A stretch of 64,000 bases of DNA from a virus, in IMG/VR virus record IMGVR_UViG_3300030107_005430, positions 1 to 64,000 of that record. The stretch is one strand, 5' to 3'. Position 1 is the first letter of the stretch; every line of letters begins with the position of its first letter. This document shows, in pieces, positions 7,399 through 25,579 of the stretch. The notes below the pieces were generated by a model that made no database searches, had not been told where the DNA came from, and saw only the letters and a list, made by a program, of their open reading frames with translations. The translations under genes were made by a program, and so were the position numbers.

Positions 7399-7956
7399 AT
7401 GCCAGACAACGACAACAATTATGTACCACTCGAAGATTACTTTAATAGTGACATCGACTTCGGATTCACCGCTGTGGATGCACAGGACGTAGAAGGTGAT
7501 GACGTACCACCACCCCCGAGTACACAAGAAGTAGTTTCAGAAGTATCTTCTGGAATTCTTTCGACTCTAGATGATTCTCTTGAGAACATACAGAGCAAAC
7601 TAAACGCATTACTTCTAAGAAACGACGAAGACGAACCCGGAATCGACAACAGCATTGATTTCTCTCGAATTGAAAGTAAACTGGATCAAATACTTGCAAT
7701 GGAGAATCAAGAACTTCTCACAGCAGTAAATGAACAAGGCGATAACATTCGTGCTGTCATTGATGAAGTAGAGGAACGAAAGAAACAACTCAATGAGCAG
7801 TATATTGTTCGAATGAGAGAAGTAGAAAAACTTATACTTCCTCTTTTATATCACCTCAAAAAGAATCCAGACAAAGAGTATATTTACTGGCCTGATCGAA
7901 CAGAAAAAATAGACGCCCAGATCTCCAAGATTCTACACCTGACAAGAGGACAATGA
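7399..7956 (+). CDS. Conserved T4-like phage hypothetical protein
   Basis: DFGF N-terminus and KLILPLL..LKKNPDKEYIYWPDR C-terminus, recalled from aquatic T4-like phages. Confidence 0.75.
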   Translation: MPDNDNNYVPLEDYFNSDIDFGFTAVDAQDVEGDDVPPPPSTQEVVSEVSSGILSTLDDSLENIQSKLNALLLRNDEDEPGIDNSIDFSRIESKLDQILAMENQELLTAVNEQGDNIRAVIDEVEERKKQLNEQYIVRMREVEKLILPLLYHLKKNPDKEYIYWPDRTEKIDAQISKILHLTRGQ

Positions 7957-8381
7957 TGAGATCATTCGTAAACTTTCTTCGAGAAAACGTATACTTTGGT
8001 TCCTCTGATGTTCAGGGAACTGGCGCTTTCTCGTCGAGAGATATTCCAAAGGGAAATCAGATCGGATTGTTTCTTCGTAAAGTAGAGGACAATCCACATA
8101 GAACATTTGTTCGTAGTGATCTGTGTAGATTAATGAATCACTCCTCCTCCCCGAATGCAGATTTAGTCATGAAAGGTGATGATGCATACGTTGTATCAAA
8201 CAAACCTATAAAAAAGGATGAAGAGATATTTGTAAACTATAATGATATCATGGACAAAGTACAAGCAGATGAGATTAAGAAAAATGAATTTGTACGATTG
8301 TATCCAGATTTGGAGAGAGAACGTCTTGAAGATGATAATGAAGACTTCTATGATGATCTAAAAAGTATGAGGCATAAATAG
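7953..8381 (+). CDS. SET-domain protein (putative lysine methyltransferase) with capsid-targeting leader
   Basis: MRSFVNFLRE; S-x-V-Q-G-x-G-A-F..IPKG; RLMNHSSSPNA; IKKDEEIFVNY. Confidence 0.85.
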   Translation: MMRSFVNFLRENVYFGSSDVQGTGAFSSRDIPKGNQIGLFLRKVEDNPHRTFVRSDLCRLMNHSSSPNADLVMKGDDAYVVSNKPIKKDEEIFVNYNDIMDKVQADEIKKNEFVRLYPDLERERLEDDNEDFYDDLKSMRHK

Positions 8382-8384
8382 AGT

Positions 8385-9434
8385 ATGCGTATAGAAAAAT
8401 TTATATCATTAATAGAAGAAAACAACTCTCCTGAAATTAAGGAGAGTGCTGTTGTTCCAGAAAATATTCATGAAATTAAGGCTCTTGCGAAACTTGGTGC
8501 AAAGGTTATTGGTGGAGGTATTGGACGACTTGCTAGTTCTAGAACGGGACAAAAGGCAGCGGGATTTGCTGCAAAAGAAAAACCAATAAGAGGCCTCGCA
8601 GCAGGTATTTCCAAGGGCGTATCCAAGTTTGCAGGAAGTGGTATAGGAAAAGGTGCGATGAGTGCGGCAGGTATTGAACCGCAGGGTGGATTTTTCAAAA
8701 CGCTTGGAGCAGAAATCAAAGGCAAATATGGTGCGGGTGGTAAATCTCTTCAAACAGCAGTTAAGGGAAGATATGCAGGCGCGGGAAGCCCTGAGGCTGA
8801 GGCACGCGACAAAGCAATGCGGGATGCGGGCGAGGCGTCCGGTAAAAAAGCAAGGGAAAAAATTGGACAATTTAAACAAGCAGTTGGATCCCAAGTGGAT
8901 GTAACTAAACAGAATCTAGAAAAGAGAAGAGAAGAAAAAGCCACCGCAAAGGCTGAAAGAAAAGCAGCAAAGTTTGCAAGATCTCCCGAAGGTCAAAGAC
9001 AGGCTCGAAGTGCAGAAATAAAGGCTAGAGTGCTTGCTAATATTGAGAAGTCAAGAGAGGCAAGACAGTCGAAAGGTATGAGACAAGATCAGGCTGATAT
9101 CTCCACTGCAAAGGACACAGTAAACCAACGGTTAACTCCCGGTGGAGTAAGAACAATAAGGAATATAGCAAACTTCCGAGCGAAGCGAGGTGAGTTAGCA
9201 TACAGAAAACTCCGTCAGGATAACCCGGAAGTTGATAAAATCATTAGAACGTATAGTTCGGAAATCAGTAAAGAAGCAGGAAGAGCAGGAAGAGAACAAA
9301 GAGCAGGCGATGCTGCGGTTGATCGGGCAATAGCACAAGATCGAGTTAGGAAACGAGGCACAGATATCGGTAACACCGGAAGAGATGTTAGTAACAAGGG
9401 TAGATATGTCGGAAACCAACCACGCCAAACTTAA
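8385..9434 (+). CDS. Basic Gly/Ala/Arg-rich hypothetical (putative internal head protein)
   Basis: CATAAATA 4 nt before ATG; LIEE, IKE, IHE then a highly basic body. Confidence 0.7.
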   Translation: MRIEKFISLIEENNSPEIKESAVVPENIHEIKALAKLGAKVIGGGIGRLASSRTGQKAAGFAAKEKPIRGLAAGISKGVSKFAGSGIGKGAMSAAGIEPQGGFFKTLGAEIKGKYGAGGKSLQTAVKGRYAGAGSPEAEARDKAMRDAGEASGKKAREKIGQFKQAVGSQVDVTKQNLEKRREEKATAKAERKAAKFARSPEGQRQARSAEIKARVLANIEKSREARQSKGMRQDQADISTAKDTVNQRLTPGGVRTIRNIANFRAKRGELAYRKLRQDNPEVDKIIRTYSSEISKEAGRAGREQRAGDAAVDRAIAQDRVRKRGTDIGNTGRDVSNKGRYVGNQPRQT

Positions 9435-9898: not shown

Positions 9899-9926
9899 TT
9901 GACATTCTTATATAATGATTTATAAT
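9899..9926 (+). promoter_or_regulatory. sigma70-type early promoter TTGACA-N16-TATAAT
   Basis: Perfect hexamers; ATG 9933 lies 6 nt downstream. Confidence 0.75.
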
Positions 9927-9932
9927 ATGCAT

Positions 9933-10601
9933 ATGCGAAAAAAGTATACTCATGTCCCATTGAATGAAGAGATAATATCTCCCACCACTGAATACCAGAA
10001 TGGTGGGAGATATTATTGCATTGGGAATGAGAAGTATCCTAGTGTAACGACAGTGACTGGATGGGAAAAGAGAAACTTCTTTGCAAAGTGGCGAAGAGAA
10101 AATCCCCTAGAGTCGAAGAGAGTTTTGAGTAGAGGAAACAACCTACACGAAGCAATCGAAAAATATATAAACAACGAAGAAGATTTTCTGAATGGTTGTA
10201 ATGATAATGTCATAGATCTATTCAATCAAATGCAACCTATGCTTGATAACATCGACAATGTACACGCACAAGAAGTTGCTCTATGGAGTGGTCTTTTGAA
10301 ACTCGCCGGAAGAGTGGATTGTGTTGCAGAGTATAATGGTAAACTCAGCATCATAGACTTCAAGGGTTCTACGAATGCAAAGAGAGAAAAGCAAATAGAA
10401 AATTACTTTGCTCAAGCGTGTGCATACGCAATCATGTGGCAGGAAAGATTTAATAAACCAATTGAACAAGTAGTGATACTCATATCAAATGAAGATGGAA
10501 TTACACAAGAATTTGTGAGAGATTCTAAGAAGTATGTTCCTACCCTTAAGAAAATGATTGATTTGTACTGGGAGGAAAATACTCAACTGATAAATACCTA
10601 G
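9933..10601 (+). CDS. PD-(D/E)XK (Cas4/RecB-like) exonuclease of T4-like phages
   Basis: YPSVTTV, RGNNLHEAIE, AGRVDCVAE..IIDFKGS, YFAQACAYA. Confidence 0.88.
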   Translation: MRKKYTHVPLNEEIISPTTEYQNGGRYYCIGNEKYPSVTTVTGWEKRNFFAKWRRENPLESKRVLSRGNNLHEAIEKYINNEEDFLNGCNDNVIDLFNQMQPMLDNIDNVHAQEVALWSGLLKLAGRVDCVAEYNGKLSIIDFKGSTNAKREKQIENYFAQACAYAIMWQERFNKPIEQVVILISNEDGITQEFVRDSKKYVPTLKKMIDLYWEENTQLINT

Positions 10602-10607
10602 TAGGAG

Positions 10608-11816
10608 TTGAGTATGTTAGAATTCAACCATTATTTAACCGAAGCGAATACCCACCTTACCCATATAGAAGATCTAGTCTTCGAGGGGGGTGCAAGAGTC
10701 GAAGAGGCGATTGCATTCCTTGAAGAGTTACTTGATATGTTATCAGGTAACGCAAGCGGTAAAATAAACACTACTGTAAAGTGGGACGGCGCACCTGCAA
10801 TTGTGTGTGGAGTAAATCCAGAGAACGGTAAGTTTTTTGTAGGATCAAAAAGCGTATTCAATAAAACGCCAAAAATAAATTATACAAACGCAGATATTCG
10901 CAAGAATCACGGGACGAAAGGTGTTGCAAAGAAATTACAAGTAGCACTCAAGTATTTGCCTAAACTTGGTATTAAAGGAATATACCAAGGTGACATGATG
11001 TTTGGTCCCGGTGATGTAAAACGAAAATCAATCGAGGGTGTTAGTTATCTTACATTTGCACCCAATACAATTACATATGCAGTCCCGATTACAAGTATGC
11101 TTGGACGAAGAATTGCAAGTGCAAAGATGGGTATCATATTTCATACAGAATATACTGGTAGGAATATGAAGTCTCTATCTGCTTCGTTTTCCCCCAAGGT
11201 AAAGTCATTAAGAAAAACAAAAGATGTCTGGTTCGACGATGCAACATATCAAGACACCAGCGGTAACGCTACAATGACAGCGAATGAAACAAGTGCATTT
11301 GAACAGAAAATCACTTCAATAAAAAGAAAATTAAATACCATAAAAACCTTTTTAGATGAATTAAAGGGTGATAAGAAAATCATAGACAAGATAAATATTT
11401 TCGCTAATGCACAAATTCGTAAAGGTGAATCTAAACTAAGCGTCAAAGAGTTCATAAACTGGCTCGATGAAAAGATGCAAGGAGAAATAGATTCAATGAA
11501 ATCGGAGGCGGGCAAGGAACGAAAAGAATTATCAAGGAAAGAATTTATGGATTACATTCAATCCAAAAATAAACAAATGAGTTCTATGTTTTCGCTCCAC
11601 TCCGATCTTTCATCTGCAAAGATTTTTATCATACGAAAATTAGAATCAGTAAAAAACATGGACAGTTTTATTCAAACACCGAATGGATTCAAGGTGACAA
11701 AACCAGAAGGATTCGTTGCAGTCGATAAGATGACAGACAACGCAGTAAAACTAGTAGATAGACTTGAATTTAGTAGAGCAAATTTCAATGCTCCGAAGAA
11801 TTGGATAAAGGGATAA
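10608..11816 (+). CDS. DUF6267-like protein; putative ATP-dependent RNA-ligase-family nucleotidyltransferase with capsid-targeting leader
   Basis: MLEFNHYLTE; NTHLTHIED; TVKWDGAP (motif I KxDG); YQGD (III); PEGFV (IV); VKLVDR (V); GATAAATA upstream. Confidence 0.7.
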   Translation: MSMLEFNHYLTEANTHLTHIEDLVFEGGARVEEAIAFLEELLDMLSGNASGKINTTVKWDGAPAIVCGVNPENGKFFVGSKSVFNKTPKINYTNADIRKNHGTKGVAKKLQVALKYLPKLGIKGIYQGDMMFGPGDVKRKSIEGVSYLTFAPNTITYAVPITSMLGRRIASAKMGIIFHTEYTGRNMKSLSASFSPKVKSLRKTKDVWFDDATYQDTSGNATMTANETSAFEQKITSIKRKLNTIKTFLDELKGDKKIIDKINIFANAQIRKGESKLSVKEFINWLDEKMQGEIDSMKSEAGKERKELSRKEFMDYIQSKNKQMSSMFSLHSDLSSAKIFIIRKLESVKNMDSFIQTPNGFKVTKPEGFVAVDKMTDNAVKLVDRLEFSRANFNAPKNWIKG

Positions 11817-11818
11817 TT

Positions 11819-12181
11819 ATGATTAGGGAACATGTCAATCAAAGAAATACTCGAACATGGGCAATGATGAATGATAATTCCAAAAGCGAGTATAACAGAT
11901 CAAAATTTGTAGAACAACACGGTGGTGAATTTATACATAATTGGGATAAACACGGTGGAATATGGCTGTGGAGAGAAACTACTGAAAAAGCAGAAGAAAA
12001 CTCTTCCCAGAATAATAAAACCGAATATATATTAACGAATTCAAATGGTGAAGAATTTATAGTAGATAATGTGAGTAAGTTTTGCAGGAAAAATGAATTG
12101 AATAAATCAGCACTCTATGAAGTTTTAAAGGGAAATAGATCCCACCACAAAGGCTTCACTATGAGAAGAAAGGATAAGTAA
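11819..12181 (+). CDS. Hypothetical protein with C-terminal NUMOD/HTH-like DNA-binding module
   Basis: YILTNSNGEEFIVDNVSKFCRKNELNKSALYEVLKGNRSHHKGF resembles homing-endonuclease-associated modules. Confidence 0.6.
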   Translation: MIREHVNQRNTRTWAMMNDNSKSEYNRSKFVEQHGGEFIHNWDKHGGIWLWRETTEKAEENSSQNNKTEYILTNSNGEEFIVDNVSKFCRKNELNKSALYEVLKGNRSHHKGFTMRRKDK

Positions 12182-12182
12182 A

Positions 12183-12305
12183 ATGGAATTTTTTAGCAGT
12201 ACATTAGGAACTATATTTTATTCAGTAGTAGTATTTACAGCAGGAGCATTAATTGGAACGCCACTCTGGAAGTGGGTTTCTGGTAAACTTCCTTGGAATA
12301 AATGA
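12183..12305 (+). CDS. 40-aa single-pass membrane peptide
   Basis: Hand translation MEFFSSTLGTIFYSVVVFTAGALIGTPLWKWVSGKLPWNK; SD aagga; directly follows upstream stop. Confidence 0.65.
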   Translation: MEFFSSTLGTIFYSVVVFTAGALIGTPLWKWVSGKLPWNK

Positions 12306-12326
12306 TTTTGTAACTGCTTGACGGCC

Positions 12327-12415
12327 AAAAAACAATACTGGCTTTCAACAGAATTAAATCACTCAAACCGAAGGAGGTGATCCAAAAATTAAACGCACTG
12401 CTGAAAGCCAGTATT
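12327..12415. ncRNA. Candidate structured ncRNA carrying the 16S rRNA 3'-tail sequence (strand uncertain, minus favoured)
   Basis: Perfect 14-bp inverted repeat 12334-12347/12402-12415 enclosing AAGGAGGTGATCCA(A) at 12371-12385, the reverse complement of the 16S 3' end. Confidence 0.55.
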
Positions 12416-12417
12416 TA

Positions 12418-12453
12418 GTCGGGGGGAAGGAAACTTCCCTCCGATGTTTTTTT
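12418..12453 (+). terminator. Intrinsic terminator
   Basis: TCGGGGGGAAG-GAAA-CTTCCCTCCGA followed by TGTTTTTTT. Confidence 0.8.
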
Positions 12454-12490
12454 ATATATATTAGGTATGTATACTACAGGATTATTCTAA

Positions 12491-15400
12491 ATGAAGAAGA
12501 TTGTATTCACATTCGGTAGATTTAACCCACCAACAATCGGGCACAAACTTCTCGCTGATAAGGTGAAGAAGCAGGCTAAGAAATTGGGTGCAGAGTCTAG
12601 AGTATACGCATCCCCGTCATTTGATAAAAAGAAAAATCCATTATCATTTGAGCAGAAATTGAAAGTGATGAGAAAGGTTCTGCGGGGAACAAATTTGGCA
12701 ACCGATTCGAGTATACGAAATCCTTTCCATGCACTCAAACAATTAAGCGATCAGGGATATACTGATGTTACAATGGTAGTTGGTTCTGATCGTGTCGCCG
12801 AATTCAAGAGATTGATTTCAAGGTACATTGGTAAAGATTTCAACTTTGATAAATTTCAAGTTGTCTCTGCTGGTGAAAGAGATCCTGACGCAGAAGGTGT
12901 TTCTGGAATGTCTGCTTCGAAAATGAGAGCAGCGGCAGAGAGCGGAAACTTCTCCGCATTTCGTGTAGGTCTTCCTTCTACTGTTTCTGAAAGAGACGCA
13001 AAAAATATATTCAGCACCGTACAAAAAGGTATGGGTGTCAAACCATTCATTAAGGAATCTTGGTTCGACTATGATGAGTTCGTAGAGTTTGCAGAACAAT
13101 ATGAAGAGGAAAATGTTGAAGAAGGTAGGAGAATGTATAAGGCTAAGGTACAAAGATTTAAAGAGAGAGATAGCCTTTCGAGACAACATGCAATCGAAAA
13201 ATATAGATTGATGGCTACACACCAAAGAAGAAGAATGAAAGCAAGAGAAGCAGACATAAGGGCTGGTGACAATGCACTTGAAAGTGTTGAGTCGAATGAA
13301 AATGAACTCAATGAAATAACGATGCAAGCAAGAAGAAAAATGGCAAGAGCAGCAAAAAGAACTGCGAAGAAAAGAGCAAGAGTTCGTGCGATCAAACAAA
13401 AAAGAAGAAAAACCAGAGGGGAAATTGAAAAGAAAAGTCGAAAGGCTGCTCGCAATTTCTTCAAGAAGAAAATTATAAAATCCATGAAGTGGGAAAAGGT
13501 TCCCATTAAGCAAAGAGAGAATATTGAAAAGATTCTCGATAAAAAGAAAACCGCGATCAATAAACTCTCGAAGAGGATGATTCCAAAAATGCAAAAAGCA
13601 GAACAGGAAAGATTGAAAAGATTGAAATCAAAGATGACATCAAACAATCCACAAAAGGCTCAGGAAAGTTTCGATGATCAATTTGAGAGAATGTTAAATG
13701 AAGAACCCATTCGAAAAGCGATGAAAAAAGATCGTGAAATGAATAGAGGAACTGGTGCATCGAATCCGAAAGAGAAAGACGCTGCTCGTAAACGTGCAGA
13801 GAGAGATACTGCTGGTAAGAAAAAGGACGCAGTGGATCGTTCATGGGAAAAATCTAGCAATCCTTGGGATCATGTCATCATAGTCAAAGATGATCGTGAT
13901 GATTCATATAAATTAGAAATGGCAGATGATTTGAGTGTTGAACATCATGAGTTGATTGCGGGTCCATCCGTATCTCCAGATACAAAGAGTAAAGGTAAAG
14001 TTACTCTCTCTAAAGTTACTAATCTAATTAATAGGGGAGAACCATTTACCGAAACAAAAACATCCAAGAGACTATTGGATCATATGGATGATATGAAGAG
14101 TGAATTGGATAAAGTTTCTGGTGAGGAAGAACAACCGGAACAGCAGCAACAACCGGCGAGTCCTGAAGAGCAACAAGCGGCTGCTGAACAAGAACAGATG
14201 GAAATGGAACAGCAGGCTCAAGAAGAATTCGAAAAGGAATATTTTGTTGGTAAAGAAGGTGCTAGGATACCAAGATCACTCGATCCCAAGACTCTAACTA
14301 AACTTAGAAAAGAAGGACTCGGACAACAAAGAAATTTTGATCAAATTGAACTTCCACAAGCAAGAGTTCCAATCCCGAAAGACGAAGGAAAGCAATTGGA
14401 ATATGCTTTCACATATGTTGGACTTCAACGAAGTGGAATGTCTGAAGAAGACATCGAAGCAAGACTACAACATACTCCAGAATTGACAGCGTTTAATGAA
14501 GATAGTTTAGGTAGAGCAAAGGCTATGATCAAAGCAATGGGAGAATCTGGTTTTGATCCTTCACAAATAGCCGGTTGTGCATACAGCGGAGAACTTGGTA
14601 TTTCGGGCATCAAAGGCGGAGAGCCAAAAACTGATAATGTTATTCTCCTAGAGAAAGATGATCCTATGAATGACTGGGCATTCACCAAAGGTATGCTCGG
14701 TGTCAGTATGAAAAAGGACGGAGACATCCAAGCATCTTCCGCACAGGGACCAAGAGCAAGTTCTGATATGAAAATGGGTGTTCAGGATTCTATTCAGAAT
14801 GGAGAAATGAGCAATAAATTGTCCAAGTCTCTTTCTAAATTGTTAGAAGATGTTAGCAACATGCCAAGTAAAATAATCGCACCCAGAAATGTGGATAAAG
14901 CATTGTCTTCTCCTCAAAATTATACAGATAAAAAACAGGTAGGAAACCCAGAGTACCTAAAACCTGCTGTTCGAGATCTGTTTGTGAACGGAGATCCAAC
15001 ACAAGGAATTCGTGACGAAGTGAATGGTGAGATCTGGACTCAAAAATTAGGAAAACAAATAAGCAAAAAAATAGAGGAAGAGTTTAAAGCAAACCCAGAA
15101 ATGGCATCTAGAGTTCTGTTTGAACAATTAAGTGGTCAAAGTACATTCTCACAAGAAGGAACCGACAGCAGAGCAGCAGCAGATGTTATGGTTACACCCT
15201 ATGGTATGAAAAGAATAACTTTGGATTATTGTCAGAAACTTATTGAGACTGGTGCAATTAGCGTTCGTGTTTCCCAGAAGGGATCTGGTGGTGGACTCGG
15301 AAGAATGACATTAAGAGTCGATGTCAAGGGTGAAGCATCTGGATCTCCTGCAATCAAAAACGTAGCACAGTTCTTGACTGGTGTAGGAATCAATGAATGT

Positions 15401-16069
15401 GTAAACACCATGAGAAGATTCGTAACAGAATCAATGGATGAAACTGGCGTTGCAGACACCGATTTAGTTAGAAACGATCTACAGGACCATGTCGGTGATA
15501 TAGCATCATCACTGTTTATGAAAAATTATGATGTTTCATTAGAAGGTGATTTGTTCAAACCATTTGAAGAGGAACATGACAGTGGAGAATCCAATACTGT
15601 CACTATAGGTAAGAAAACATTTAATATCCCTGTAATGAAAATGGCAGATGATATCACCTATAAGAAGAAGAATTATAGTGACGACACACCAGAAACTCCT
15701 GCGGATCGAAACAGGATGACAGAGGGAAGAAACTATAGAAAAGAATACGAAAACTACCAAGGTACACCTAAACAAAGAGCAAATCGAAGCAAGAGAGTTC
15801 TTGCAAGAAGAAGATTGATGAACCTCGGAAGAGTAAAAAAAGGCGACGGTAAAGACGTTGATCATAAAAACGGAAACCCAAAAGATAACTCTGATGGAAA
15901 TTTAAGAGTAAGATCTGTACATGCAAATAGAAGCGACAATAAACAATCAGTACGAAAAGAAGAACACGGTGCAGGTGAACAGGGAACGAGTAAACTCTTA
16001 AGGAAGTATATGAAAGATACTCCATATGCAAAATTATACAATCTTGATAATGCAAAAGATAAAAAGTAA
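12491..16069 (+). CDS. Multidomain protein: HIGH-family cytidylyltransferase-like domain, basic helical modules, PD-(D/E)XK-like domain, C-terminal HNH-like domain
   Basis: FGRFNPPTIGH, VVGSDR, SAGERDPD, MSASKMR; EPKTD..GVSMKK; KDVDHKNGNPKDNSDGNLRV..ANRS. Confidence 0.8.
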   Translation: MKKIVFTFGRFNPPTIGHKLLADKVKKQAKKLGAESRVYASPSFDKKKNPLSFEQKLKVMRKVLRGTNLATDSSIRNPFHALKQLSDQGYTDVTMVVGSDRVAEFKRLISRYIGKDFNFDKFQVVSAGERDPDAEGVSGMSASKMRAAAESGNFSAFRVGLPSTVSERDAKNIFSTVQKGMGVKPFIKESWFDYDEFVEFAEQYEEENVEEGRRMYKAKVQRFKERDSLSRQHAIEKYRLMATHQRRRMKAREADIRAGDNALESVESNENELNEITMQARRKMARAAKRTAKKRARVRAIKQKRRKTRGEIEKKSRKAARNFFKKKIIKSMKWEKVPIKQRENIEKILDKKKTAINKLSKRMIPKMQKAEQERLKRLKSKMTSNNPQKAQESFDDQFERMLNEEPIRKAMKKDREMNRGTGASNPKEKDAARKRAERDTAGKKKDAVDRSWEKSSNPWDHVIIVKDDRDDSYKLEMADDLSVEHHELIAGPSVSPDTKSKGKVTLSKVTNLINRGEPFTETKTSKRLLDHMDDMKSELDKVSGEEEQPEQQQQPASPEEQQAAAEQEQMEMEQQAQEEFEKEYFVGKEGARIPRSLDPKTLTKLRKEGLGQQRNFDQIELPQARVPIPKDEGKQLEYAFTYVGLQRSGMSEEDIEARLQHTPELTAFNEDSLGRAKAMIKAMGESGFDPSQIAGCAYSGELGISGIKGGEPKTDNVILLEKDDPMNDWAFTKGMLGVSMKKDGDIQASSAQGPRASSDMKMGVQDSIQNGEMSNKLSKSLSKLLEDVSNMPSKIIAPRNVDKALSSPQNYTDKKQVGNPEYLKPAVRDLFVNGDPTQGIRDEVNGEIWTQKLGKQISKKIEEEFKANPEMASRVLFEQLSGQSTFSQEGTDSRAAADVMVTPYGMKRITLDYCQKLIETGAISVRVSQKGSGGGLGRMTLRVDVKGEASGSPAIKNVAQFLTGVGINECVNTMRRFVTESMDETGVADTDLVRNDLQDHVGDIASSLFMKNYDVSLEGDLFKPFEEEHDSGESNTVTIGKKTFNIPVMKMADDITYKKKNYSDDTPETPADRNRMTEGRNYRKEYENYQGTPKQRANRSKRVLARRRLMNLGRVKKGDGKDVDHKNGNPKDNSDGNLRVRSVHANRSDNKQSVRKEEHGAGEQGTSKLLRKYMKDTPYAKLYNLDNAKDKK

Positions 16070-16746: not shown

Positions 16747-18210
16747 ATGTCAAGTGTAATATATCTTCAAGGTATTGGGGAAAAGCCAGCAAAGATGGTT
16801 TCAGAACTATCTGAGGGTGATATATTTCTCAAAAACTATGGTTATAAGTATAGAATTATAGCGTGTGAATCGTTGAGTGAAAATGTATACGAACTCACAT
16901 TTGAATCTTTGAATTCAACAGATCCGGGATGTAGATATTCTAAAACCGTTCGAGGATCTACGTTGGTTGGTATTCATGAAGATGAAGGTGTTCAAGACTT
17001 AAATGAAGATATGAGATTGATGCAACAATTGCACATGGCACAAAAAAGAGCGACTGATAGAAAAAGAAGAGAAGACGAAGAAAGAGAGAGAAAAAGAAGA
17101 GAGAATCAAGAACTCTCTGCAAACAAACAAGTTTCTGGTGAATTTGCAGGTGCAAGAGAAGAAACCATCGCTGACAAAATTTTGAACTTCATGTCAGAGA
17201 GAAAATTCAGCAAAGCGGAAATAAAAAAGAGGAAGAAGGTTGGAGATAAACTACCTAAAGGTGAGTTTAAGAAAAATTATCCTAATCCCAGACCTCCTGC
17301 AAAATCATGGAAAGATGTTCTCTGGGCAACAGCAACAAACATCGTGAAGGGTGAGAAGACTGAAGAATCCGTTGAACTGGATGAAACAAGGGATAGGGCT
17401 GAACTCATTAACCTCATGAACAGAACAGGTGAAAAAGTAGCATCCGATACTAAAACAGACAAAGGAAGAGTTACTCCCAAAACGAATCAAGCACTGCGAA
17501 TTAATATCAAAGCAAGAAAAAGACTCGGACTTCCCGTTGAATCCGTTGAACTGGATGAACTCAAGACACCAACATATAAATCTTATAAAAGAAAAGCAGA
17601 TAAACAAGAAAAGGATCTGTTTGATAAGGGCTACTCTGATCTGAGTCCCGAAGAAAAGAAGAAGGCGGACAAGAGAAGAGAAGGAATCAATAGAGCAGAC
17701 AAGTTGATAAGAAAACGCCGTGAAGGTTTACATAGAGATCCTCCAAGACCGGGTAGGGAACGGATTCAAGATGAGGTGGTAAAGGAAGCAATCGCTGATG
17801 GGAAACCAAAGTCCAAGAGTCAAAGAAGAATGGACGTTGCTATATCTAAAATTGATAGAGCGTTTCCTGAGACTAAAAACCAGAAATGGGCAAAGCAAAG
17901 AGGCGGTTTTAGTGGATATGACAGAATACAATCTGCTGCTTCAAGGATGCAAAGAGGACACGATCCTGAAAAGATGAAAAAAGAACCCGATGATGTTTTC
18001 CAGAACACATCAGATGTCAGAGCAGCAGAGAAATTAATGAAGAAGAGAAGACAGAGAAGCAAGAAAGCAAGTATACAAGACAGCGTACAGAAAAACATAC
18101 TCTCCCAATTAAAGAATTTCGATTTATCTGGAGAGGGGCTCGATATTCCTGCTATAAATAATAAGAAGTGGGGAACCGAAGGATTCAAAAACAAAAGGAA
18201 AAACTCATGA
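16747..18210 (+). CDS. Modular basic polyprotein with ESVELDE linkers
   Basis: LNE, MSE, EESVELDE, VESVELDE, VVKE separate Lys/Arg-rich modules. Confidence 0.75.
   Translation: MSSVIYLQGIGEKPAKMVSELSEGDIFLKNYGYKYRIIACESLSENVYELTFESLNSTDPGCRYSKTVRGSTLVGIHEDEGVQDLNEDMRLMQQLHMAQKRATDRKRREDEERERKRRENQELSANKQVSGEFAGAREETIADKILNFMSERKFSKAEIKKRKKVGDKLPKGEFKKNYPNPRPPAKSWKDVLWATATNIVKGEKTEESVELDETRDRAELINLMNRTGEKVASDTKTDKGRVTPKTNQALRINIKARKRLGLPVESVELDELKTPTYKSYKRKADKQEKDLFDKGYSDLSPEEKKKADKRREGINRADKLIRKRREGLHRDPPRPGRERIQDEVVKEAIADGKPKSKSQRRMDVAISKIDRAFPETKNQKWAKQRGGFSGYDRIQSAASRMQRGHDPEKMKKEPDDVFQNTSDVRAAEKLMKKRRQRSKKASIQDSVQKNILSQLKNFDLSGEGLDIPAINNKKWGTEGFKNKRKNS
17365..17559 (+). repeat. 21-nt exact direct repeat GAATCCGTTGAACTGGATGAA (17365-17385 and 17539-17559)
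   Basis: Read directly; encodes ESVELDE; related copy at 5155-5175. Confidence 0.9.
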
Positions 18211-19672: not shown

Positions 19673-19840
19673 ATGGCTTGCAGCAGTTGCAGCAAAGGGA
19701 AAAAAATAAACAGAACCAGTAGTAGAATAAATCAAAAATCGAAAGTGACAATTCCCAAGAGATCATGCACCAAAGTAACAAAAAGAACAAATGAAGTAAC
19801 CGAGAAACGAAAAGTAAAGACCACTCTCAGGAGAAGATAA
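19673..19840 (+). CDS. 55-aa very basic protein with CxxC
   Basis: Hand translation MACSSCSKGKKINR..TLRRR; TAATG coupling to next gene. Confidence 0.55.
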   Translation: MACSSCSKGKKINRTSSRINQKSKVTIPKRSCTKVTKRTNEVTEKRKVKTTLRRR

Positions 19841-24395: not shown

Positions 24396-25550
24396 TCAGA
24401 ATTCTACCTGAATCTGAGTACGAACGAGGTACTCTCCACTATCGACACTGTTATTCCAACCAGTGTCTGCTACATTCCAACCAGCACCAATACCATCAAA
24501 GGCGTAACCAATATCGGTTGTCCACTTGACGCTATCATTTAGCCAGTAGTTTGCACCAACAGTAACAACGCTAAGGTCGTTTCCTGCTGCCTCTGTTGTA
24601 CCATACTCGTACTGGACGTAACCCTGTAGGTTGTCCATGCACTGGTATGCAGCAGAGAATGTAGTTGCCCAGTTATCACCTGCATCTTGGTTTACACCAA
24701 CGAATGCTGCGGTGAGATCTAGAGCGCCAAACTTAAGACCTGTATCAAAAGTATAGGTCCAGTAATCAGTGACATCAAGATCATTCCATGAAATTGCTGC
24801 ACCAAGGTTCCACCAATCGGTGACATCCCAATCGACTCTACCCGTGAGAGCATAACCGTTTGGAACACCTGCACCATTTGCAGAATTGAATCCATCAGTA
24901 TATGCGGCACGAACATTGAGTCCACCGAAATCCTTACCAAGTTGAATACCCTGTGAACGGCCTTGTCCATAGGTGTACGCAACGATGGAACGATCAGCAG
25001 CGAGAGTGTCAGCCCGTGACACAAGAACTTCCTTCATGAATGGACTCTTGAATTGTCCAAACTGAAAATCGAGTCCTGCAAGATCAAAGGTGCCATATGC
25101 ATCCTTCAATTCAAAATCTCCACCATCATTCCACTGACCGCTAACCTTATAACCAACATCATAGACTTTACCACTAAGGACAAGTCTTGCAACGGGGACA
25201 CCGAAACCATGATTAGCCTCAACACCACCACCACTGTTATAAGTGTAACGAGTCTGGAAGAAACCACCAACATTCACTGTGATGGGATTTGCATCTGCAA
25301 GCATCATTGTGCGAGCATCAGCATCAGCCATCACTTCACGAATCATAGCCTTAGTTTCTTCACTTCGACGAGTTTCCAACCAAGTTGGTTCACTCTGTTC
25401 ATCGAGTTGAGCAATTCGTGCTTCTGCTGCGTCCAGACGAGACTGAAGATCCTCATACGAGGGGGTATCAGAAAGTGCGGGTGCAGCAAATGCTGCGATT
25501 ACTACAGCAGCAGCGATTGCTCCATACATTGTCCATTTTTTCTTGCTCAT
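24396..25550 (-). CDS. Outer-membrane porin (OprO/P-like, Phycisphaerae-type)
   Basis: Signal peptide, N-terminal coiled coil, WLETRRSEE..VMADADAR, ELKDAY, GQFKSPF, amphipathic strands, terminal QVEF. Confidence 0.85.
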   Translation of the reverse strand: MSKKKWTMYGAIAAAVVIAAFAAPALSDTPSYEDLQSRLDAAEARIAQLDEQSEPTWLETRRSEETKAMIREVMADADARTMMLADANPITVNVGGFFQTRYTYNSGGGVEANHGFGVPVARLVLSGKVYDVGYKVSGQWNDGGDFELKDAYGTFDLAGLDFQFGQFKSPFMKEVLVSRADTLAADRSIVAYTYGQGRSQGIQLGKDFGGLNVRAAYTDGFNSANGAGVPNGYALTGRVDWDVTDWWNLGAAISWNDLDVTDYWTYTFDTGLKFGALDLTAAFVGVNQDAGDNWATTFSAAYQCMDNLQGYVQYEYGTTEAAGNDLSVVTVGANYWLNDSVKWTTDIGYAFDGIGAGWNVADTGWNNSVDSGEYLVRTQIQVEF

Positions 25551-25579
25551 AGGATTACCTCCTTGAATCGAAAAACGAC

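Follow-up and report, generated by a model that had tools for sequence, protein, structure and literature searches.

Two enzyme genes with an RNA hairpin between them, in the genome of a T4-like marine phage, raise the question of whether the three parts form one system and of what the enzymes do. The window examined here is a stretch of 64,000 nucleotides, the first 64 kb of IMG/VR record IMGVR_UViG_3300030107_005430, and the locus occupies positions 10,608 to 16,069 in it; the record is a single contig of 157,073 bp from a T4-like myophage (guanine-plus-cytosine content 37.9%) whose nearest isolates are Pelagibacter phage HTVC008M and the T4-like cyanophages (Kyanoviridae). The record is 87% complete, and this limit applies to every whole-genome absence reported below. 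A first-pass annotation had proposed that the locus is a three-part RNA repair or counter-defence module, made up of a ligase-like enzyme, a non-coding RNA with the 16S tail and a HIGH nucleotidyltransferase. All the parts that it named were found, including the small DNA-binding-like open reading frame (ORF) and the 40-residue membrane peptide that separate the enzymes. The best explanation overall, to which we would give an even chance of being correct, is a different one: a conserved set of two enzymes that would be packaged, injected and used to seal nucleic-acid ends, lying next to a separate, lineage-specific RNA.

DUF6267 is predicted to be a ligase-type nucleotidyltransferase

The ligase-like gene encodes a 400-residue protein of the family DUF6267 (10614..11816, + strand; Pfam E 1.9e-120). 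Its reading frame is open from 10608, but because the homologues are 400 residues long we take the ATG at 10614 as the true start. The family is large: close sequences number more than 8000, and clustering at 50% identity leaves 2644 representatives. Across 52 diverse homologues the invariant or near-invariant positions were K58-x-D60-G61, Q127-G128-D129, an F-x-P-N-T block, E367-G368-F-V and K381...D384-R385; the first of these, K58-W-D60-G61 in the window protein, is a KxDG motif whose K, D and G are each at least 90% conserved. Their order agrees with that of motifs I, III, IIIa, IV and V in covalent nucleotidyltransferases, with names assigned by inspection, and E367-G368 and K381/R385 are conserved where motifs IV (EG) and V (K) would fall, a mapping that was likewise made by inspection.

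An AlphaFold model of the protein (predicted local distance difference test, pLDDT, 90; predicted template-modelling score 0.85) has a beta-rich core that is split by a helical insert of about 120 residues (225-346). No OB domain was seen in the model, in which one short helix alone lies beyond the core. When the model was used in an exhaustive structural search (VIA-align), ranks 1-14 were all ligases, and ten of the top eleven matches were RNA ligases, rank 10 being a putative DNA ligase. The best match was NgrRnl 5cot (Z 9.2, root-mean-square deviation 3.8, 188 residues), and the other RNA-ligase matches included Trl1 (Z 8.3/8.0), REL1 (7.9), T4 Rnl2 (7.6) and T4 Rnl1 (7.5); DNA ligases scored lower, at Z 5.7-7. 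Foldseek against the Protein Data Bank (PDB) returned a weak list of mostly ligases at E of at least 0.066, with no match at E 0.001 or better.

The protein therefore has both likenesses to and differences from the Rnl2/Rnl5-type and tRNA-type RNA ligases (Naegleria NgrRnl 5cot, the ligase domain of fungal Trl1, Trypanosoma brucei REL1, T4 Rnl2 and T4 Rnl1). The nucleotidyltransferase fold is held in common (Z 7.5-9.2 over 177-203 aligned residues), as are the KxDG lysine motif, the putative EG and K motifs near the C-terminus and the lack of an OB domain. In contrast, identity is only about 8-16%, with no sequence match to Pfam RNA_ligase or to a solved ligase, and DUF6267 differs in the insert of 120 residues that splits its domain, in a capsid-targeting-like leader and in that its activity is a predicted one. 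The protein has no Pfam match besides DUF6267, and a match to PF09414 (RNA_ligase) is absent from the whole genome record. Taking the moderate Z values and the conserved lysine motif together, we label DUF6267 a ligase-type, RNA-ligase-like covalent nucleotidyltransferase as judged from its model, and, because no profile search or sequence search of solved structures ties it to a described ligase family, we treat it as a family of its own. The RNA-ligase-like gene of the first-pass annotation was thus borne out in its ligase-type fold and motif set by KxDG conservation, model and structural matches.

The partner gene encodes a predicted HIGH nucleotidyltransferase

The second enzyme is residues 1-225 (12491..13165, + strand) of a 1192-residue protein (12491-16069), and it matches the CTP_transf_like domain PF01467 (E 6.5e-6) as well as phrog_3041 and phrog_395, annotated as 'cytidyltransferase'. 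An in-frame start further upstream was ruled out by a TAA directly before its ATG. The domain carries the motif G-R-F-x-P-x-x-x-G-H (F-G-R-F-N-P-P-T-x-G-H), the motif S-x-S-K-x-R and a family-specific invariant block, S-A-G-x-R-D-P-D. With a model of this domain (pLDDT 88.7), Foldseek found nicotinic acid mononucleotide (NaMN) adenylyltransferases (NadD) at E 1e-5 and phosphopantetheine adenylyltransferase (PPAT) at E 9e-5, with probability 1.00 and template-modelling scores of 0.5-0.67. NaMN and nicotinamide mononucleotide (NMN) adenylyltransferases and phosphopantetheine adenylyltransferases move AMP onto a phosphate. On the model we regard the fold class, NadD/PPAT-like HIGH, as certain, and the cytidylyltransferase-like gene of the earlier annotation is confirmed as a HIGH nucleotidyltransferase by Pfam, PHROG and Foldseek.

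The domain shares with NadD, NadM/NadR and CoaD the Rossmann-type HIGH fold and both general motifs, but it is unlike them in several respects. Against curated NadD/NMN adenylyltransferase (NMNAT) models it scored 20.1 bits and did not reach the cut-offs of 164 (PRK08887) and 112 (TIGR00482); it has the SAGxRDPD block; and no NAD-salvage partner (PF04095, Nampt/NAPRTase) was matched in the genome. Sequence searches against PDB chains gave marginal matches to PPAT and MJ0951 only. Furthermore, the fusion partners of the family, which are HNH_3, SET and DUF5824 domains and DUF6267, set it apart from NadD, NadM and CoaD.

The rest of the 1192-residue protein (13166..16069) consists of a low-complexity linker, a middle region and a C-terminal HNH_3 domain (~15827-15925; Pfam HNH_3 E 1.3e-4, phrog_4590), which takes up the last ~80 residues. 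The linker, rich in Lys, Arg and Glu, spans 13100-14300 (residues ~210-600) and may act as a linker that associates with DNA in a packaged protein. A feature search with the middle region (residues 590-1060) returned viral hypothetical clusters only. In relatives a SET methyltransferase domain lies within the transferase polypeptide (P0294, P0303, P0306 and P0307; L067, L068 and L070), whereas the SET protein of the window (7953-8381) is a separate, leader-bearing gene, and this difference suggests a modular shuffling of injected-effector-like domains.

Fusions and synteny tie the two enzymes together

In the first-pass annotation the functional link between the enzymes rested only on adjacency. 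We found the link to be stronger, because fusions recur in both orders and synteny is conserved. Both domains were present in one protein in 14 of the 150 best family representatives, with ligase-like-first and transferase-first orders both occurring, and PHROG 455 is a fused profile of the two. The order of replication genes, DUF6267 and transferase is kept in HTVC008M, DSL-LC02 and S-SZBM1, and in DSL-LC02 the two genes overlap. A hidden Markov model screen covered 52 IMG/VR loci, 42 of them with at least 2.5 kb of flank, and among these 42 the transferase lay 67-2264 nt 3' of DUF6267 in about 27. In addition, GenBank phage records with one family or the other formed almost identical sets and had near-equal host counts (Synechococcus 371 and 375, Cyanophage 61 and 61, Prochlorococcus 24 and 24). 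The jumbo enterobacterial phages have the transferase and do not have DUF6267. A complex prediction for DUF6267 and the transferase domain scored 0.00, and we counted it neither for nor against coupling. Taken together, the fusions in both orders and the synteny indicate that the two enzymes work together, and on these genomic grounds they are clearly partners, functionally tied beyond adjacency.

One DUF6267 representative carried an N-terminal fusion to an AAA_33/Zeta-type P-loop kinase. This is the kinase type of polynucleotide kinases, and the fusion is consistent with a role in nucleic-acid end repair. Fusions of DUF6267 to a mini-PolX were not seen; one N-terminal extension matched a nucleotidyltransferase-like DUF at no better than 0.037.

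Leaders, late-promoter motifs and virion proteomes point to packaging

The capsid-targeting sequence of T4, MKTYQEFIAE, is cut after its Glu by the prohead protease. Most of the 52 DUF6267 homologues began with a leader of the form M-x-x-F-x-x-[FY]-L-x-E (for example MKSFKQYL.E and MKTFKQF..E), and the N-terminus of the window protein, MLEFNHYLTE, fits a leader ending in (L/I)-x-E. A few homologues lacked the leader and started at the conserved core, so the leader looks like a tag added to the protein. A leader of the same type was present on many transferase homologues. In the window, the motif GATAAATA (10589..10596, + strand) stands 18 nt 5' of the DUF6267 ATG and resembles the T4 late promoter, TATAAATA.

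Published virion proteomes of relatives bear on the same point. The transferase was detected in purified virions of S-SZBM1 (PMC9146016), S-CREM2 (PMC10665884) and S-SCSM1 (PMC9602691), and a detection in S-CBWM1 virions is cited in PMC9602691. The authors of PMC9146016, PMC10665884 and PMC9602691 propose that the virion transferase enters the cell with the phage. In S-SZBM1 the gene adjoining the transferase (gene 141) was confirmed as a DUF6267 orthologue. From the leaders, the late-promoter motifs and these proteomes, we infer that the enzyme pair is most likely made late, packaged into the head and injected. The first-pass annotation had missed the packaging signals, which favour a reading in which the enzymes are delivered by the virion.

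The pair would in this respect be comparable to the internal proteins and Alt of T4, with which it shares the leader pattern, a late-promoter-like motif and, for the transferase, presence in cyanophage virions. It differs from them in that the cargo is of ligase and nucleotidyltransferase type, not an ADP-ribosyltransferase or restriction inhibitor, and in that processing and injection are here predicted.

On the + strand between 2205 and 20300, many ORFs open with capsid-targeting-like leaders: MRTFKQYISE at 2218, MRSFVNFLRE of the SET-domain protein at 7956, MRIEKFISLIEE at 8385, MKKYKELTAFLAE at 18207 and MKEFNTFKQELTE at 19840. Late-promoter-like motifs, (T/G)ATAAATA, precede most of the leader ORFs (+ strand; 2205, 5592, 6453, 8374, 16712 and 18153). 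As read from these signals, the block as a whole may encode head-packaged cargo.

An RNA hairpin between the enzyme genes is confined to one sub-clade

The spacer of 185 nt between the peptide gene and the 1192-residue protein holds an RNA hairpin (12334..12415, + strand) with an 18-bp stem (arms 12334-12351 and 12398-12415). Its loop holds AAGGAGGTGATCC (12371-12383), the exact 13-nt complement of the 3' tail of 16S ribosomal RNA; the 16S-tail sequence itself is on the - strand. Directly after it, an intrinsic terminator (12418..12455, + strand) with a GC-rich stem of 12 bp and a T-run closes the upstream transcription unit. The 16S-tail RNA of the first-pass annotation is therefore a real element, but as transcribed it is a complement of the tail and not a copy of it; a role as 'donor' is excluded, since the orientation of the terminator makes the + strand the transcribed one.

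The AAGGAGGTGATCC 13-mer is unique in the 157-kb genome. At up to one mismatch there were two matches in the window against 0.08 expected, the second being an ordinary ribosome-binding site: the near-perfect extended Shine-Dalgarno AAGGAGGTAATCC (25552-25564, - strand), which lies directly before the ATG of a 384-residue ORF (24396-25550). Very long 16S complements are thus also ordinary ribosome-binding sites in this phage.

The hairpin has a fold z-score of -5.5. Relatives, found through protein identity and a pattern scan of IMG/VR, comprised 16 distinct versions, all 16 of them between DUF6267 and transferase genes on the coding strand; two other pattern matches were due to chance. In a model-based alignment of the 16, 92% of the cells of the 18-bp stem were paired and six pairs had compensatory changes, compared with at most 51% in slid controls, and a MAFFT alignment of seven hairpin sequences gave the same pairing picture. 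The loop always retained GGAGGTG plus 2-6 further tail-complementary bases, and a frequent A-to-G change in the loop of relatives preserves pairing with the 16S U (G-U). An equivalent terminator followed the hairpin in every relative. In a divergent group (L059-L062) the spacer is folded differently around the same core. No match was found in Rfam 15 at the gathering score, the best sub-threshold one being an animal miRNA model (26 bits against 47). By alignment, then, the hairpin is a real, covarying and clade-specific RNA element.

A covariance model found a single copy in the genome and none in the 13 other DUF6267-transferase lineages. The hairpin is confined to the sub-clade of the window phage and does not occur in HTVC008M or the cyanophages. 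Because the pair does without it in all of these, the enzymes do not appear to need it, and as far as these genomes tell the hairpin does not belong to the enzyme module in general. The earlier suggestion that the RNA is a third component of the module falls with the count of 0 in 13.

Several other uses of the 16S complement were considered. As the start of a small ORF it was ruled out, the nearby candidates being only ATT (window) and ATA (L003), and the downstream frames are dissimilar and run through the terminator. A stand-alone small RNA with its own promoter was judged unlikely: no sigma-70-like site was reported, and the stop codon of the peptide is 5-12 nt from the stem in most relatives (5-28 nt overall). 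This short distance is also why we read the hairpin as an element of the 3' untranslated region (3' UTR) and not as a separately promoted small RNA. No alternative pairing of hairpin and terminator, as in an attenuator, was found.

The sister clades suggest where the element came from. There the same extended Shine-Dalgarno serves as an ordinary ribosome-binding site, for the small peptide (whose stop overlaps the transferase start) in the L007 group and for the transferase itself in the L010 group. A strong 16S-binding site at this place thus seems to be an old feature of the locus, and the hairpin appears to derive from an extended Shine-Dalgarno that serves the peptide or the transferase gene in the sister clades. 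In the clade of the window the site is, on this comparison, uncoupled from a start codon and evidently held under selection inside the hairpin.

What would it do there? Among the alternatives to a shared role with the enzymes, the one that survives best, falling a little short of an even chance, is that the hairpin is a cis-acting, 30S-binding 3'-UTR element of the upstream operon, stabilising the mRNA or holding terminating ribosomes and unrelated to the chemistry of the enzymes. The peptide stop 5-28 nt before it and the terminator after it in all relatives fit this view, as does the fact that in the sister clades the extended Shine-Dalgarno drives translation of the peptide (L007 group) or the transferase (L010 group) and that the other near-perfect copy in the window is an ordinary ribosome-binding site. 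Bacillus mRNAs provide a parallel, in that they carry ribosome-binding 'stabiliser' Shine-Dalgarno sequences without an ORF; these too combine a strong 16S-tail complement with the lack of a start codon behind it. However, the known stabilisers act at the 5' end, whereas the hairpin presents its sequence in a loop at the 3' end of a transcript beside a terminator, in a marine phage and without an Rfam match. Also against this view, neither a start codon within working distance nor an ORF with conservation was found 3' of the 16S complement, and a terminator and an in-frame stop lie between it and the transferase gene.

Gene order and neighbouring features

Every gene from 9.9 to 16.1 kb is on the + strand, in the order PD-(D/E)XK nuclease-family gene, DUF6267, NUMOD-like protein, 40-residue peptide, spacer and 1192-residue protein. 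The nuclease-family gene (9915..10601; Pfam PDDEXK_1 E 5.1e-9) lies directly 5' of DUF6267 and is kept upstream of the ligase-like gene in L055-L062 and L068-L070.

The NUMOD-like gene (11819..12181, ORF from 11801) encodes a small DNA-binding protein without a nuclease domain. Its I-HmuI NUMOD-like domain (PF22083, E 1.9e-6) and phrog_2081 match the C-terminal part only. Orthologues are 106-116 residues long throughout the sub-clade (L055-L070), and the protein resembles a domesticated DNA-binding remnant of a homing endonuclease more than decaying debris. In the close relatives L067 (1346-1966) and L070 (4301-4936) an extra glycosyltransferase gene (Gly_transf_sug / Caps_synth) lies between DUF6267 and the NUMOD-like gene, which marks this interval as a hotspot for gene insertion.

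The 40-residue peptide (12183..12305, by translation) is hydrophobic and would span the membrane once. Homologous peptides occur in L003, L067-L070, L007 and L010, and between both enzyme genes in several clades. In L007 (8430-8600) the peptide gene is kept between the enzyme genes with its stop overlapping the transferase start (ATGA-type coupling); in L010 (5330-5560) it is also kept, and there the transferase is extended at its N-terminus and has an extended Shine-Dalgarno of its own.

Five tRNA genes, Lys(UUU), Met(CAU), Ile(UAU), Arg(UCU) and Leu(UAA), are clustered at 142678-145712 on the - strand, outside the window. The cluster is about 130 kb away from the locus and is unlinked to the ligase-like gene.

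Discussion

In the explanation that we favour, DUF6267 would be a covalent lysine-adenylylating nucleotidyltransferase whose shape comes nearest to that of nick-sealing and tRNA-type RNA ligases, and the transferase a HIGH-motif enzyme shaped like NaMN/NMN and phosphopantetheine adenylyltransferases. The two would be made late, taken into the head by means of a capsid-targeting leader of T4 type and injected together with the DNA. Their most likely task would be the sealing or rejoining of broken nucleic-acid ends as soon as infection begins, with damaged or host-nicked phage DNA, or cleaved RNA, as candidate substrates; the transferase may contribute an adenylyl-transfer step or a cofactor. 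The hairpin would be a separate 3'-UTR element of the small-peptide gene that displays a strong 16S-tail-binding sequence. A nucleic-acid context for the pair is given by the kinase fusion in one DUF6267, the PD-(D/E)XK neighbour upstream and the HNH domain that ends the transferase protein.

T4-like phages carry Pnkp/Rnl1 RNA repair, which undoes anticodon-nuclease defence. The window phage is likewise T4-like and has a ligase-type enzyme that could reverse nuclease damage, with one family member fused to a kinase. In contrast to T4, however, a kinase-phosphatase was not found in the genome, the HIGH partner is without a T4 counterpart and the proteins look late and packaged, not early. No Pnkp-type healing enzyme was recognisable in the genome, in which an AAA_33 search gave a 15-bit P-loop match to an unrelated 312-residue frame at 70 kb. 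The proposal of an RNA-repair or counter-defence module thus holds in its two-enzyme part, while its RNA part fails, the hairpin being absent from most lineages with the pair, an outcome that the annotation had itself named as refuting the idea. The genome record also has no match to PF01068 (ATP-dependent DNA ligase), to NAD-dependent DNA ligase or to Pfam RNA ligase. Because there is neither a Pnkp-type enzyme nor a canonical ligase, and because the nuclease neighbours are of DNA type and the proteins look late and packaged, a role on injected DNA is at least as likely as one on RNA. For the enzymes themselves RNA repair is still conceivable, since the fold is RNA-ligase-like and one relative is fused to a kinase.

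Several observations weigh against the picture of a packaged sealing pair. To our knowledge no part in nucleic-acid repair has been established for HIGH transferases. Both assignments, of DUF6267 and of the transferase, are predictions. The Z values of 7-9 for DUF6267 are moderately above the background of this aligner; a single sequence and a profile of 52 sequences, searched against all PDB chains, gave nothing meaningful and linked no solved ligase; and a full-text literature search found no paper naming DUF6267, nor anything under an old misspelt gene name. As to coupling, a DUF6267 clade at ~40% identity lacks a transferase within 7 kb, and in some cyanophages the matches to the two families are far apart. 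As to packaging, the transferase of the window itself lacks the leader, and the DUF6267 orthologue of S-SZBM1 (gene 141) does not appear in the virion list as quoted from PMC9146016, which does have the transferase, so that the leader alone speaks for packaging of DUF6267 itself.

It is conceivable, though we consider it unlikely, that the pair supplies a missing replication and repair DNA ligase together with its cofactor: the transferase would make NAD+ or another adenylyl donor, DUF6267 would seal Okazaki fragments and nicks, and packaging would be incidental. The genome lacks ATP- and NAD-dependent DNA ligases and a Pfam RNA ligase, DUF6267 is always just 3' of primase-helicase or UvsX replication genes, the transferase fold is nearest to NaMN/NMN adenylyltransferases, and cyanophage papers label the transferase NMNAT-like (PMC9602691, PMC10665884). 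This proposal is weakened by the missing OB domain of DUF6267 and by DNA ligases scoring below RNA ligases; by the 20 bits of the transferase against NadD/NMNAT cut-offs of 112-164 bits; and by the fact that the Nampt/NAPRTase partner is not encoded. In addition, capsid-targeting leaders and a late-promoter motif are ill-suited to an enzyme of replication, which the phage would need early and in large amounts, and in a record that is 87% complete a canonical ligase could sit in the missing part.

Less probable still is that, once injected, the two enzymes attach nucleotides to a host protein or small molecule, by effector-type AMPylation or by making or destroying a nucleotide signal, and so disarms the host at entry, the ligase fold then standing for lysine-adenylyl chemistry only. 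Capsid-targeting-like leaders in both families would suit such a role, as would the fusion of the transferase to varied effector-like domains (SET, HNH_3 and DUF5824), as in injected multi-domain phage proteins, and neither enzyme reaches the curated cut-off of a family with a known substrate. However, all characterised members of the KxDG superfamily that we know of act on nucleic-acid 5' ends, and the kinase fusion and nuclease neighbours point to nucleic acids.

The three-part model, in which enzymes and hairpin form one RNA-repair or counter-defence system for the 16S 3' end and the hairpin masks the tail from toxins or splints the halves for the ligase, is very improbable: its loop does complement the last 9-13 nt of 16S ribosomal RNA in every variant, with A-to-G changes keeping G-U pairing, a nick-sealing RNA ligase comes first among the structural matches of the ligase-like protein and 16 of 16 true hairpins lie between both enzyme genes, but these 16 are one inherited lineage and not independent associations, the 13 other pair lineages, HTVC008M and the cyanophages do without a hairpin, its position is accounted for by descent from a ribosome-binding site there, it lies in a 3' UTR, where no separate promoter was seen, and RelE/MazF-type toxins leave 5'-OH and cyclic-phosphate ends that require a kinase/phosphatase, which the genome lacks. 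That the hairpin would bind the anti-Shine-Dalgarno tail of the host, shielding it from tail-cleaving abortive-infection toxins or splinting it for the co-encoded ligase, we rate lowest of all, because the complementarity itself is the sole support; if true, it would be the first viral system for repairing or protecting ribosomal RNA.

What the locus appears to offer, then, is a widespread set of uncharacterised enzymes within known superfamilies, a three-part 16S repair system being unlikely. DUF6267 and the 'cytidyltransferase' occur in essentially every T4-like cyanophage record (~460 records each), in HTVC008M (a SAR11 phage) and in metagenomic sequences by the thousand. Their carriers rank with the most abundant marine viruses, and the annotations of the transferase have so far been guesses only. 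The hairpin, a covarying RNA whose ribosome-binding sequence has nothing to translate behind it, is a small puzzle in its own right. If the pair is indeed a virion-delivered kit for sealing nucleic acids, phages would have a new route for delivering repair or counter-defence chemistry to the cell ahead of any gene expression, and the pair could bear on the infectivity of sunlight-damaged marine virions and on the apparent lack of a ligase in these phages.

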